This document shows, piece after piece, positions 10,002-47,369 of a stretch of DNA of 64,000 bases. The translations under genes and the position numbers were made by a program. The stretch comes from a virus (taxonomy: Duplodnaviria > Caudoviricetes): positions 10,105-74,104 of the IMG/VR virus record IMGVR_UViG_3300028832_000131. One strand, written 5' to 3'. A model generated the notes under the pieces. The model searched no databases. It was given only the letters and a program-made list of their open reading frames with translations, and had not been told where the DNA came from. Within the stretch, counting starts at the first letter, position 1, and every line of letters starts with the position of its first letter.

Positions 10002-10334
10002 ATGGAGGATTGTATAAAATATATGGATAATTTTGAAATGGAAATTATTGCATTAGAGGGGTTAATGAAAAGAACGGACGATATTAAGATGCAACAACTC
10101 CTAGAAATAGAGGTAAGCAATAAAAAAACACTACTGTCAAAGTACCGTAGTGTCCTAAGTAATATATCATCAAATGATATATGCTGTCGTCTATTTGCGA
10201 AGATACTGGGAGGTCTCCCCCCCACTAAAGCAGTAGAAGACGTTGCAAAAGAGAATTATTATAGAGATATTAAGCCAAATAGTTTATCGGCTATATGGAG
10301 ATATTATTCAAAAATCAAAGATTTATTGGAATGA
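10002..10334 (+). CDS. Putative late-transcription activator (RinA/ArpU-like by position)
   Basis: 110 aa with C-terminal helical DNA-binding-like segment, directly upstream of the conserved late promoter and terS; homologue at 56295. Confidence 0.4.
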   Translation: MEDCIKYMDNFEMEIIALEGLMKRTDDIKMQQLLEIEVSNKKTLLSKYRSVLSNISSNDICCRLFAKILGGLPPTKAVEDVAKENYYRDIKPNSLSAIWRYYSKIKDLLE

Positions 10335-44250: not shown

Positions 44251-44300
44251 TAAGTTTATGAGGCGGTTTATTCCGCCTTTTTTTATAAAGGAGAAATCAA

Positions 44301-44570
44301 ATGGAAGAAGAAATTAAAGAAATAAGACAAATTGCATTAGAAAACAAAAAAGCAATTCAAGAGCATACTGAAAATATAAAAGAAAGTTTTGAAAAAATAG
44401 AACAAAACTCGTTTGTTTTAGATATTATTAAAGATTATAAAAACGAAATTGATACATTAAAAGACATTGTCAAAACAAACAAAAAAACAATTAAGATTAT
44501 GTTAGGTATACTAATATTTATGTTAATTTTATTAGGAGTTGTTTGTTATCATCATTTAATAATCGTGTAG
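44301..44570 (+). CDS. Coiled-coil protein with C-terminal TM
   Basis: Heptads then MLGILIFMLILLGVVCY. Confidence 0.6.
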   Translation: MEEEIKEIRQIALENKKAIQEHTENIKESFEKIEQNSFVLDIIKDYKNEIDTLKDIVKTNKKTIKIMLGILIFMLILLGVVCYHHLIIV

Positions 44571-44580
44571 GTGAAAGCCT

Positions 44581-44781
44581 ATGAAAAGTTTTAATTTTAG
44601 TAGAACTGAATATGAATACATTTGCGAAGAAGCGATGCTTAATGAAAAATATAGAAAACTTTTAAAAATGAAAATATTAGATTATTCAAGAGCCAAAATG
44701 GCAGATGAATTAGGCTATAGTATTGATACGATAGATGATATGGTGGCAGAGTTAAAGAAAAAAATAAAAAAAGCAATATAA
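44581..44781 (+). CDS. Sigma70-region-4/LuxR-like HTH (head of the post-lysis cassette)
   Basis: YSRAKMADELGYSIDTIDDMVAELKKKI. Confidence 0.7.
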   Translation: MKSFNFSRTEYEYICEEAMLNEKYRKLLKMKILDYSRAKMADELGYSIDTIDDMVAELKKKIKKAI

Positions 44782-44821
44782 TTACTAAAAACATTGCCAA
44801 TTTTAATACCAAAAATACTAC

Positions 44822-44851
44822 AAGAACATTACAAAACAATGTTCTTTTTTT
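44822..44851 (+). terminator. Intrinsic terminator after the HTH gene
   Basis: AAGAACATT/AATGTTCTT plus T-run. Confidence 0.7.
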
Positions 44852-44880
44852 ATGCAATAATGTAAGTGAAAGGAGATATT

Positions 44881-45003
44881 ATGACTGAATTAATGGAAGA
44901 ACTTTTAAAAATAATGGATAAAGAATGCGAAGAATGTAAAGAATGGCAAAAAAACAAGCCTCTCATAATTAATATATATGTAGGAGATGATGAATATGAA
45001 TAA
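44881..45003 (+). CDS. 40-aa acidic peptide with CxxC
   Basis: MTELMEELLKIMDKECEECKEWQKNKPLIINIYVGDDEYE; AAGGAG RBS. Confidence 0.5.
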   Translation: MTELMEELLKIMDKECEECKEWQKNKPLIINIYVGDDEYE

Positions 45004-45346
45004 TCAATATATAATAGATAATTTAGTAAGACAACGAGAAAAGATAGATGATATGCTACGTGGCTATCAACAACCTCAACCAATGAATGTATTTAATGTG
45101 GGAGGCACTCAAATCGATTTTGAGGCACGTATGATAGGCAAAGACGAGAAACCAAGTGAAATTATGGTACAACGTAAAACAGCGTTTATATCGTTGGATA
45201 ATTCGTTATTAACTATAAAAGAAATTAACGGAGATATTAAAGAATATAAAATACAAATACCAAAAACAAAAGAACAAATTGAAAATGAAGAGTTAAAGAG
45301 AAAAATTAAAGACTTAGAAGACAAATTAAGAGAGAGAGGTAAATAA
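44987..45346 (+). CDS. Cassette protein, Gln/Asn-rich N-terminus and coiled-coil end
   Basis: 119-aa ORF. Confidence 0.7.
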   Translation: MMNMNNQYIIDNLVRQREKIDDMLRGYQQPQPMNVFNVGGTQIDFEARMIGKDEKPSEIMVQRKTAFISLDNSLLTIKEINGDIKEYKIQIPKTKEQIENEELKRKIKDLEDKLRERGK

Positions 45347-45347
45347 T

Positions 45348-45548
45348 ATGAATATGAGTTTTTTACAACAAATAATTAAAAGTGGTAATCCAAAACAAAT
45401 GATATTAAATATGATGACACCACAACAAAAGCAAATGGCAGAAGCTTTTTTAAATAATCCTAACAGAGAACAAGCTTTGAAAGATCTGATGAAACAACAT
45501 AACGTAACAGATGAACAAATAAACTCTGTAAAAAGTATTATTAAATAA
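45348..45548 (+). CDS. Cassette protein, small Gln/Met-rich helical
   Basis: GNPKQMILNMM...ALKDLMKQHN. Confidence 0.7.
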   Translation: MNMSFLQQIIKSGNPKQMILNMMTPQQKQMAEAFLNNPNREQALKDLMKQHNVTDEQINSVKSIIK

Positions 45549-45583
45549 GATATTAATATTATTAATATAGAAAGGAGGACACA

Positions 45584-46096
45584 ATGAACGGAACAACAGG
45601 AATTGGGTTAGATTGGAGTGGTCTAATTGGATTACTTATCATAGCTGGGATATTTGGATATGGTAATGGGTTTGGATTTGGAGGCAATAATGCAGTATCT
45701 ACTTTGACAAATGCTGAGCTTCAAATGGGACTATACAATCAAACTACTGACAACGCTATTCGTGGCATATCAAGTCAAGTTGCTACCTTGAATGATACTG
45801 TCTTAATGGGTAAGTATGATAACGCATTACTAATGAAAGATGCGTCACAACAACTATCTAATAGTATTGCATCTATTGGTAATTTAGTAGTACAAGAAAA
45901 TCAGGCTACTAGAGATATGATAATGCAAAATAAGATTGATTCATTATCAGACACAATTACAATTCTACGTGGAGAGAATAGTAATTTAAAACAAACCGCT
46001 GAAATCACCCAAAATATTTTAGGTAGTTTAGCTACTACTGCTCCAAAACCACCATGTTATTATGGATATGGTTGCGGTTGCAATTCTCTATACTAA
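45584..46096 (+). CDS. Cassette protein: TM/Gly-rich N-terminus, coiled-coil stalk, Cys/Tyr/Gly tail
   Basis: LIGLLIIAGIFGYGNGFGFGG; ENQATRDMIMQNKIDSL; PCYYGYGCGC. Confidence 0.75.
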   Translation: MNGTTGIGLDWSGLIGLLIIAGIFGYGNGFGFGGNNAVSTLTNAELQMGLYNQTTDNAIRGISSQVATLNDTVLMGKYDNALLMKDASQQLSNSIASIGNLVVQENQATRDMIMQNKIDSLSDTITILRGENSNLKQTAEITQNILGSLATTAPKPPCYYGYGCGCNSLY

Positions 46097-46116
46097 GGTA
46101 TAGATTGACTTATATT

Positions 46117-46145
46117 GACTAGACACTATAAGTCTAGTCTTTTTT
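46117..46145 (+). terminator. Internal cassette terminator
   Basis: GACTAGAC/GTCTAGTC plus T6. Confidence 0.8.
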
Positions 46146-46164
46146 AAAGAAAGGAGGTAATAAA

Positions 46165-46527
46165 ATGTGTAATACAATATTTTGTTCAAACGTAACAACT
46201 ACTGATACAGCAGTTGTATTAATTCCTAATCAAGAAATTAAAACTTTAGAAAACGTTGGTTGTTATAGATTAATTATATGTTGCAACGCTACTGCTACTA
46301 GCAACTTGCCTGTATTTATTCAAGTAGGGACTACTAATATTCCTGTGTTATGTCATGCAGGTAATGTAGTATACTCTTCACAATTAACTAAACGTAAAAA
46401 TTATCCAATTATATATGGAAACGAAAACCCAGAATATACTAATGGACAATTTGTAATACAAGGTAATATATGCCCAAGAGCTGCAACTATACCAGCAGTA
46501 CAAACAACAACACAAAAAGTTAAATAA
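46165..46527 (+). CDS. Cassette protein: Cys-rich beta-sandwich-like
   Basis: Seven Cys, beta-rich, 120 aa. Confidence 0.7.
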   Translation: MCNTIFCSNVTTTDTAVVLIPNQEIKTLENVGCYRLIICCNATATSNLPVFIQVGTTNIPVLCHAGNVVYSSQLTKRKNYPIIYGNENPEYTNGQFVIQGNICPRAATIPAVQTTTQKVK

Positions 46528-46544
46528 AGAATGGAGGTGAAAGT

Positions 46545-46985
46545 ATGATAAAGGAATATATAAATAAAATAGGAAATATAAAAGATTCGAATAAAATGGA
46601 TAAATTAGGAGAAATGTTAGAAAAATTAATATATAATTTAAAAGATGAACACGAAGAAGAATATGAAAAATATAAAACAGAATTATACGAATTAGCTTAT
46701 GGGAAAAAGATAAGTAGAGAAATGGCAGTAGAGTGGGTGAATAGTATGAAACCATTAGGAGAATACTGGACTATAGACCAAACTACAAATGCTATGCAAA
46801 CGTTAGGATATAATTTAGATTCAATAGATTTTTATGTAGCGGCTAATATGATAATGAACGATTATAGTGATTTATTAGAAGAGGAAGAAGAATTAGCATT
46901 AAAAATGGCTTATGATTGGTTAAATGATGAAGATGCTAAAGATAATAAATTATATTGTTATTGGAAGCATATAGTAAAAAAATAA
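46545..46985 (+). CDS. Cassette protein: acidic helical
   Basis: AVEWVNSM..GEYWT..QT, FYVAANMIMNDY, AYDWLNDEDA...KLYCYW. Confidence 0.75.
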   Translation: MIKEYINKIGNIKDSNKMDKLGEMLEKLIYNLKDEHEEEYEKYKTELYELAYGKKISREMAVEWVNSMKPLGEYWTIDQTTNAMQTLGYNLDSIDFYVAANMIMNDYSDLLEEEEELALKMAYDWLNDEDAKDNKLYCYWKHIVKK

Positions 46986-47008
46986 GAGCATTAAACTCTT
47001 ATTTTTCT
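46981..47008. terminator. Bidirectional terminator
   Basis: AAATAAGAG...CTCTTATTT flanked by A and T runs. Confidence 0.65.
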
Positions 47009-47054
47009 TTAGGATAACACCTACTACGGACTAAATATATTATACCATATAAGT

Positions 47055-47083
47055 TTGACAAAAGCGAGTATATAGTGTATATT
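47055..47083 (+). promoter_or_regulatory. SigA promoter of a stand-alone gene
   Basis: TTGACA-17-TATATT. Confidence 0.7.
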
Positions 47084-47084
47084 A

Positions 47085-47369
47085 ATGCACTTAAAAAGGG
47101 GGTGTATATTTGTGAATTGTATTGTTACATACCAAAAGTCAAACGGGGAAATATTTATAAGACCATACGACCACTCTTGTTTTGCAATGAGTAAAAGAGT
47201 AGGGGACGAAACTTCAATGGGTTGGACTATAATTGATATACATTATAAATACAAAAACAACTATTATTGTTTTGATGATTTTATAAAGTTGTTCAATAGA
47301 GAAGTTAAAGAAAAATTAAACAAAAAAATGTTAAAATTCGTAATAAGAAAATTAAACAAATTAACTTAA
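47085..47369 (+). CDS. Stand-alone (moron-like) hypothetical protein
   Basis: Own promoter; likely GTG start near 47112 after GGGGTG. Confidence 0.6.
   Translation: MHLKRGCIFVNCIVTYQKSNGEIFIRPYDHSCFAMSKRVGDETSMGWTIIDIHYKYKNNYYCFDDFIKLFNREVKEKLNKKMLKFVIRKLNKLT

Follow-up and report, generated by a model that had tools for sequence, protein, structure and literature searches.

A stretch of 64,000 nucleotides from a tailed virus (Duplodnaviria; Caudoviricetes; IMG/VR record IMGVR_UViG_3300028832_000131, positions 10,105 to 74,104; hereafter the window) carries at positions 44581-46985 a cassette of seven plus-strand open reading frames (ORFs), four of which form a conserved unit coding for proteins of 119 and 66 amino acids (aa), a 170-aa rod and a 120-aa knob. 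With somewhat less than even confidence, we read this cassette as an accessory operon, mobile and widespread among gut and rumen phages, that specifies a non-enzymatic, membrane-anchored rod-and-knob assembly, held in the membrane of the producing cell and exposed at lysis. The proposal draws on sequence comparison and structure prediction, and is set out here with the alternatives against which it has to be weighed.

A conserved four-gene unit of gut phages

The loci compared comprise 28 viral loci and four from metagenome-assembled genomes (MAGs), all fetched by the rod protein. Wherever a locus extends far enough, the genes for the 119-aa protein, the 66-aa protein, the rod and the knob are adjacent and stand in one fixed order, while a gene for a DUF7841 protein follows the knob gene in about half of the loci and a helix-turn-helix (HTH) gene is detectable in about a quarter. 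Because the fixed-order co-occurrence is limited to the first four, the conserved unit is, on this comparative evidence, four genes with optional partners, and not the self-contained seven-gene cassette that had been put forward in an initial annotation of this DNA. The observations behind that annotation hold up: the seven ORFs have exactly the coordinates given there, the internal terminator and the closing hairpin lie where it placed them, and the co-occurrence on which it had made its reading depend is seen, in the same order, across phages. Each of the seven ORFs is preceded by a Shine-Dalgarno sequence, and six of them have relatives in other loci.

The family of the rod is large and anonymous. 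At E ≤ 1e-3, 647 relatives (clustered at 90% identity) were recovered, and a profile search of 1.84 billion representatives places the family in 160 clusters at 50% identity; their sources are almost all gut, rumen and faecal viromes, and their source names are without exception ‘hypothetical protein’, which bears out the remark in the initial annotation that such cassettes recur in gut phages without a known function. The rod corresponds to phrog_16490, and profile searches of Pfam, NCBIfam, PADLOC and PDB returned no match to its family. More generally, the Pfam, PHROGs, NCBIfam, PADLOC and PDB profiles yielded no informative family for the rod, knob, 119-aa and DUF7841 families, the protein atlas contained only viral ‘hypothetical protein’ clusters, none of the seven proteins matched PADLOC-DB at E ≤ 0.01, and no enzyme domain was detected in the cassette proteins in any library scanned. 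In the literature, we found no description of the cassette, nor any mention of ‘DUF7841’.

Remote copies with the same gene order occur in six Clostridium perfringens phages, with CPD1, CPQ4 and vB_CpeS-17DYC among the carriers, and further ones in lemur and rodent gut phages. The CPD1 cassette consists of genes 036, 037, 039 and 040, and gene 038, an insertion between its 77-aa and rod genes (L001:3600-4250), codes for an HNH endonuclease; another locus has an HNH/NUMOD-like ORF of the homing-endonuclease type interrupting the cassette between the rod and knob genes (L031:2227-2894). In Dulem virus 36, the remote copy, again in the same order, directly follows a receptor-binding protein gene, and in Bajarodcaudo virus 5 the order is holin, endolysin, a transmembrane (TM) coiled-coil protein, a sigma-region-4 HTH protein and then the four core genes. 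Still more distant versions are found in two MAG loci (L052 and L053), one of which begins with a small Cys peptidase that the window does not have. The position of the cassette in the genome is variable, with the L052 version standing before the terminase gene. DNA and protein searches of an isolated-phage collection with the region and the rod returned nothing, and only the knob reached the C. perfringens phages. In several loci, the place of DUF7841 after the knob is taken by a protein of 66-77 aa that combines a coiled coil with a membrane helix at its N-terminus (L001:5329-5529, L037:8199-8432, L023:5822-6040 and L025:5791-6003); it has no holin match in Pfam.

In sampled bacterial genomes, the rod family was detected in five of 399 from the phylum of one carrier MAG and in one of 401, the carrier itself, from that of another. 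Spo0A and SpoIVA are both present in two of the five carrier MAGs and both missing from the other three. With the caveat that the MAGs are incomplete and phage contigs may be mis-binned, the cassette thus does not appear to be tied to sporulation. One further weak match to the rod family (E 5e-6) lies in a 1.0-Mb genome and has three TGA interruptions (L043, G204:C1:308971-312315); its host may read TGA as Trp.

Outside the window, the record itself (74 kb) carries the cassette once more in diverged form (L004, G000:C1:7021-10524). Between window positions 44301-47369 and this copy, which is without the DUF7841 gene, the rods are 94% identical and the knobs 61%. Between these two copies, the knob behaves like a swappable specificity module.

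The rod

The 170-aa rod protein (45584..46096, plus strand) can be divided, on the basis of an AlphaFold model built on 122 sequences and of the alignment, into a 10-aa tail, a hydrophobic helix at residues 11-23, a disordered Gly-rich linker, one continuous 110-residue helix at residues 43-152, and a disordered Pro/Cys/Gly/Tyr tail that closes with the motif PKPPCYYGxGCG..SLY. The hydrophobic, Gly-rich head, the long helix and the PPCYYGYGCGC tail that had been noticed from the letters alone are all seen, and the model of the supposed stalk is indeed rod-like. The tail is the most conserved segment, with a mean pairwise identity of 77%, and its end (PKPPCYY..GCG..SLY) is nearly invariant in the close lineage. 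Across the 122 relatives, the head has a mean hydrophobicity of 2.35, the flanks of the hydrophobic helix have net charges of -2.4 on the N-terminal side and -1.0 after the helix, and K/R is more frequent behind the helix than ahead of it in 58 relatives, the reverse holding in 20. These charges weakly favor an N-out/C-in orientation.

Among the 150 matches listed, no rod cluster exceeds 296 aa, and the same 150 clusters include no fused rod-knob or fiber-knob form; for the knob, one odd 241-aa protein turned up. We also considered a double-glycine leader, as many relatives start with LSxxD(V/I)xA...GG and a small Cys peptidase opens some of the cassettes. This idea was dropped: the leader-bearing relatives are without the peptidase, the rod of the peptidase-bearing L052 is without the leader, and the window has neither.

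The knob

The 120-aa knob (46165..46527, plus strand) is modeled by AlphaFold as a Cys-containing, seven-stranded beta-sandwich without a signal peptide (predicted local distance difference test score, pLDDT, 79.9; predicted template-modeling score, pTM, 0.72), and has 429 relatives. A Foldseek search of PDB returned nothing significant. The best match in VIA-align was chain 2 of PDB entry 9b45, residues 244-340 (Z 5.5, root mean square deviation 3.2 over 91 residues), with the next row at Z 3.4-3.7; this chain segment is bead III of the trimeric tail fiber gp47 of phage Pa193, an AlphaFold model fitted to the map (PMC11456595). In BFVD, the best matches are stand-alone gut-phage proteins of 110-130 aa, followed (E 2e-4 to 1e-2) by the C-termini of tail fiber, collagen-repeat, tail-collar fiber, receptor-binding and hyaluronidase proteins. 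From these comparisons of models, the knob is, with modest support, assigned the fold of a trimeric tail-fiber bead or tip domain, which agrees with its initial interpretation as a tip. The same BFVD search brought up a 294-aa ‘DUF7841 domain-containing protein’ of a crAss-like virus that also holds a knob-like domain.

A disulfide between the rod tail and the N-terminus of the knob, as had been suggested, finds no backing in the family: the first 12 residues of the knob contain between zero and three Cys across the loci and none in four tabulated loci, the only invariant Cys being C63. Spore-appendage folds were likewise considered and set aside. The BclA C-terminal domain (PF18573) has no Pfam match in the window knob and weak ones in four of 35 relatives (best E 0.019), and the BclA/C1q trimers are absent both from the rows with Z ≥ 2 of two VIA runs and from the PDB list of Foldseek. 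Ena (DUF3992) gave no match at E ≤ 1 and is not in the fold lists. Nor is the knob a copy of the phage’s own fiber tip, there being no sequence relation to the phage’s own fiber proteins. An hhalign comparison found no link between the window knob family and the knob of L053, which also looks different by eye. The only longer knob relative, P0436 (241 aa), carries a Pfam domain of mechanosensitive channels and aligns with one half of the knob at 73% identity; it lies on a 2-kb contig, and the gene call is probably chimeric.

The small proteins and DUF7841

The 119-aa protein (44987..45346, plus strand) consists, by alignment, of an N-terminal helix, a Q/P linker, a small beta domain and a charged C-terminal coiled coil. 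Profile searches found no relative of it in Pfam or PDB, and phrog_21718 is matched by its distant positional counterparts (CPD1, Dulem and Bajarodcaudo) and not by the window protein itself. The basic 66-aa protein (45348..45548, plus strand) is always encoded immediately upstream of the rod gene. It is rich in Q (13.6%), N (12.1%) and M (10.6%), so that the initial description of two Gln/Asn/Met-rich small proteins applies to this one, but not to the 119-aa protein, which is only mildly Q/N-rich (7.6% each).

To assess co-variation among the products, their matrices of pairwise identity were correlated across 30 loci. The two small proteins vary together (rho 0.84), and each tracks the rod head (rho 0.76 for the 119-aa and 0.84 for the 66-aa protein). 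The head itself shows only a weak correlation with its own rod (rho 0.38) and almost none with the knob (rho 0.12). Rod heads come in two types, the short type of the window and a long type that begins with LSxxDV..A, and each is accompanied by its own type of small proteins. This co-variation fits a head-specific role for the pair.

The 146-aa acidic, helical protein encoded after the knob (46545..46985, plus strand) belongs to DUF7841, matching PF25223 at E 7.6e-13 and 49.2 bits against a cut-off of 25.2. In the crAss-like phage cr6_1, a DUF7841 gene stands by itself immediately downstream of a holin gene and a spanin-like gene recoded at TAG. There (L054:3848-4920), the DUF7841 ORF, whose product has a Pro-rich C-terminal tail, overlaps the end of the spanin-like TM coiled-coil gene, which has 10 in-frame TAG codons and needs TAG to be read as Gln; the database name of the cr6_1 DUF7841 protein is sigma factor/ubiquitin-like protein. 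A helper or chaperone role, anticipated in the initial annotation, fits both the co-variation of the small proteins with the rod head and the existence, in another virus, of a natural protein joining knob-like and DUF7841 domains.

Control elements

Between the rod and knob genes lies a conserved intergenic element (46088..46145, plus strand) composed of a stop-codon hairpin, the sequence TTGACTTATA, an intrinsic terminator and a T-run. The stop codon of the rod gene sits in the loop of a small hairpin at 46088-46103 (CTATAC TAAG GTATAG); in relatives, the non-coding arm of this hairpin changes along with the last codons (CTTTAT...ATAAAG, CTAT...ATAG). The near-invariant TTGACTTATA follows the stop codon at 46105-46114, and the terminator scan located the intrinsic terminator at 46117-46139, with its T-run at 46140-46145. 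RNAalifold on a MAFFT alignment of the spacer gave no consensus because the hairpins were misaligned, and they were then read sequence by sequence: a hairpin with a T-run stands at the same place in about 30 loci, with at least nine different stems. A hairpin kept in position while its stem varies is good evidence, at the level of sequence, for a real terminator between rod and knob, as the initial annotation had proposed, and it argues that the output of the knob and DUF7841 genes should fall below that of the rod; the suggestion of a less abundant tip is in keeping with this.

Further pairings can be drawn within the element. In the window (46105-46139), TTGACTTATA is complementary to TATAAGTC, which spans the terminator loop and the 3' arm, and in one relative (L015:5071-5159) both sides have changed together (GACATAAA / TTTATGTC). 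This pairing could be an antiterminator helix masked by the terminating ribosome; alternatively, the TTGAC there may be the -35 box of an internal promoter. The T-run of the terminator, for its part, can pair in several relatives with the ribosome-binding site of the knob gene.

At the head of the unit stands, as first described, an HTH gene (44581..44781, plus strand), whose 66-aa product resembles sigma-70 region 4 and LuxR-GerE proteins in weak profile matches and is a candidate operon regulator. It scores below the cut-off against Sigma70_r4_2 (E 0.003, 17.6 bits against 25.7) and matches the sigma70-ECF model over the final 47 positions of that model (E 5.5e-4), while positional counterparts exceed their cut-offs, namely those of L038 (Sigma70_r4, 26.7 bits against 24.1) and L014 (GerE, 30.0 against 23.5). 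Some relatives have a tandem pair of such sigma-region-4/GerE-type HTH genes near the lysis genes, upstream of the cassette (L014:3462-4082, L023:2295-2814 and L025:2461-2982).

The terminator that had been noticed after the HTH gene is readable in the sequence, its G+C content being too low for the terminator scanner, as a hairpin AGAACATT / AATGTTCT at 44823-44845 with a T-run. It is followed by an extended -10-like element, TG at 44853-44854 and AATAAT at 44856-44861, and the two together occupy 44823..44861 on the plus strand. Eight relatives keep the outer AGAAC / GTTCT arms of the hairpin with an inner stem that varies and retains its complementarity, and the same eight keep a T7 run and the motif TGnNATAAT after it, a motif that occurs once in the window. 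Together, these probably constitute the terminator of the HTH unit and the operon’s own promoter or operator; it is possible that the terminator doubles as the operator, followed by the extended -10 promoter. The degenerate TAC.AAAA repeats formerly singled out at 44784-44836 do not qualify as a feature: they are no more frequent than chance would allow, TACNAAAA occurring 56 times in the window and only twice exactly within that interval, and extra TAC.AAAA repeats are absent from the relatives.

Remaining features and flanks

The first ORF after the HTH gene codes for an acidic 40-aa peptide with a CxxC motif (44881..45003, plus strand; ORF list) and overlaps the start of the next gene. Although the peptide exists where it was first described, it is lineage-specific: it recurs only in L004 and in one other locus, L009 (77-81% identity), the CxxC pair is kept in the former and has lost its second Cys in the latter, and other relatives have unrelated tiny ORFs at this position. 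At the far end, an A-run, a hairpin and a T-run (46981..47006), read from sequence and fold, overlap the stop codon of the last gene and close the unit. The hairpin itself (46981-47003), again too poor in G+C for the terminator scanner, is present as the bidirectional terminator once described in the window, but only some of the relatives have it; in others, the next promoter comes immediately after the unit.

Upstream of the cassette lie an endolysin gene with a PG_binding_1 domain (E 1.4e-19), genes for a holin-like protein with one TM segment and an 89-aa protein, and a lysis-gene terminator found by the scan at 44260-44279. The 89-aa coiled-coil protein (44301..44570, plus strand), encoded between that terminator and the HTH gene, has a C-terminal membrane helix and resembles XhlA in architecture only (PF10779, 10.4 bits against a cut-off of 34.7, E 0.8). 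Its gene is kept beside the HTH gene in L004 and L031, and analogous small TM and coiled-coil genes are present in L038 and L035. Downstream, 70 bases beyond the end of the cassette, a strong TTGACA-17-TATATT promoter (47055-47083) opens a cro-like and replication region.

Proposed function and alternatives

We propose that the 170-aa proteins assemble in parallel, probably as trimers, into an alpha-helical rod of about 16 nm, whose Gly-rich hydrophobic N-terminal head would sit in the membrane and whose Pro/Cys/Gly/Tyr tail, at the other end, would carry the knob. The 119-aa and 66-aa proteins would serve the head or the juxtamembrane linker, DUF7841 would serve the knob, and the terminator between the two genes would ensure that more rod than knob is made. 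Because signal peptides are missing from all cassette products and the charges beside the hydrophobic helix are weakly in favor of N-out/C-in, the assembly would be built on the cytoplasmic face of the infected cell’s membrane, late, from its own regulated promoter. Lysis of the cell would then expose it, and the knob would bind a ligand. The initial annotation thus had the architecture largely right, whereas its disulfide-linked tip, seven-gene boundary and spore link find no support.

Several points weigh against this proposal. Both flanks of the hydrophobic helix are acidic, and the topology of the rod is for that reason only weakly determined; we infer its membrane topology and surface exposure, as we do its trimeric state and its contact with the knob. 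The rod is poor in K/R/E and rich in N/G/Q/T, as are extracellular fibers and unlike cytoplasmic coiled coils. The co-variation of the small proteins with the rod head could simply reflect the adjacency of their DNA, and the identities of the knob and DUF7841 barely correlate (rho 0.19). Finally, the fold match of the knob in PDB is modest, and what it matches is likewise a prediction by AlphaFold, fitted to a map.

We judge release followed by insertion into another membrane to be somewhat less probable than anchoring in the producer. In a specific form of the former, which we regard as unlikely while ranking it ahead of the other alternatives, the operon would specify a virion-independent trimeric particle, a soluble rod-knob complex whose membrane-inserting head is shielded by the two small proteins as chaperones; set free at lysis, its receptor-binding knob would attach to neighboring cells and its head would insert into their membrane, making it a bacteriocin, adhesin or priming factor. 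Such a particle would account for the lack of signal peptides, for a rod and knob with the composition of virion fibers, for two dedicated small proteins that co-vary with the head, for small-xxx-small motifs in the Gly-rich head like those of fusion peptides, and for a knob that is, as in receptor binders, the most divergent part between the two phages of the record; the placing of small TM and coiled-coil genes and a sigma-like regulator around the cargo also recalls the bacteriocin and toxin loci of clostridia. Against it, an N-terminal hydrophobic helix of this strength is normally captured for insertion into the producer’s membrane, the libraries scanned hold no bacteriocin or pore former with homology to the cassette, and no immunity gene is evident. 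If true, the released particle would be a new class of phage effector, with TM-segment chaperones analogous to those of secreted membrane toxins.

Less probable again is a virion accessory, that is, a side fiber, decoration or ejection protein encoded outside the tail and head modules. The place of the cassette at the end of the late region, and directly after receptor-binding protein genes in Dulem virus 36, would suit such a role, as would the fiber-bead fold of the knob and the fiber-like composition; yet the cassette is found in varying positions and is controlled by a regulator and terminators of its own, it can do without the DUF7841 gene, a hydrophobic head takes the place of a virion-attachment domain in the rod, and relatives are labeled sipho-, myo-, podo- and crAss-like, from which we take the cassette to be independent of tail type.

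Two further alternatives are on a par with each other and slightly behind the virion accessory. As a surface structure of the infected or carrier cell, the assembly would have an N-in/C-out rod and would mask receptors or exclude other phages; morons similarly have their own promoter-like element, regulator and terminators, and the receptor-binding type of the knob fold would be apt, but the knob and all its partners are without export signals, the acidic N-terminal flank argues against N-in, the knob is unrelated to the phage’s own fibers, and the family is rare in the bacterial genomes sampled. As a lysis accessory, it would disrupt the membrane or envelope, or time their disruption, at the last step, in the manner of spanins or XhlA. 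The cassette adjoins holin and endolysin genes here and in several relatives, a TM segment with a Cys-bearing coiled coil recalls i-spanins, and the cr6_1 DUF7841 gene has holin and spanin-like genes directly before it; however, a lipoprotein partner is lacking, the cassette is carried by phages whose host, C. perfringens, is monoderm, a fiber-tip knob has no place in known lysis systems, and the cassette is not always beside lysis genes. The spore-coat or exosporium appendage entertained at first, which the phage would add to host spores, is highly improbable: Cys-rich, low-complexity proteins, the weak BclA_C matches in four of 35 knob relatives and the carriage by C. perfringens phages speak for it, and against it stand three of the five (incomplete) carrier MAGs in which neither Spo0A nor SpoIVA was found, and the searches, which brought up no BclA or Ena membership and no entry for either in the fold lists.

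Comparison with known systems

No member of these families is named, none is in Pfam apart from the optional DUF7841 partner, and none has a solved structure. An ordered, mobile, separately regulated and non-enzymatic module of four to six genes, carried by so many phages, probably marks an undescribed step between phage and host or within the phage community, and the remote copies in culturable C. perfringens phages make it directly testable.

Phage tail fibers, exemplified by Pa193 gp47 (PDB 9b45; PMC11456595), share with the cassette the bead beta-sandwich of the knob, a helper-like gene following that for the tip and an N/T/G/Q-rich composition, and the knob matches the C-termini of many predicted fiber and receptor-binding proteins. 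In contrast to them, the cassette rod consists of one alpha helix and bears a membrane-type hydrophobic head where a fiber has its virion-attachment domain, rod and knob are separate polypeptides among the 150 rod clusters listed, and the genes lie outside the tail module with a regulator of their own. The exosporium nap of the Bacillus cereus group (BclA, ExsFA/BxpB) likewise has a filament ending in a small beta-sandwich knob and Cys-rich anchoring partners, but the cassette is without collagen repeats, BclA_C appears only below threshold in four of 35 relatives, and its carriers are not confined to genomes with sporulation genes. With the Ena1A/B proteins (DUF3992), the knob has in common a beta-sandwich of about 120 aa with Cys near the N-terminus, which in the knob family is unconserved, and no DUF3992 match is found at E ≤ 1.

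Spanins (lambda Rz/Rz1, P2 LysB/LysC) resemble the cassette in an N-terminal membrane helix, a coiled coil with Cys, a small partner gene and a frequent location near lysis genes. They differ from it in their lipoprotein partner: no cassette partner has a signal peptide or lipobox, so that the cassette does not group with the two-component spanins, its partner is instead a fiber-bead-like sandwich without any sequence relation to them, and the C. perfringens hosts of cassette phages have no outer membrane. In clostridial bacteriocin and toxin loci (UviA/UviB-bcn and TcdR/TcdE), a small sigma factor and a holin-like protein flank the cargo. There as here, a sigma-70-type regulator and small TM and coiled-coil proteins surround cargo without signal peptides, whereas the cassette regulator has region 4 only (66 aa) and no homology to UviA, UviB, TcdE or any toxin was found.

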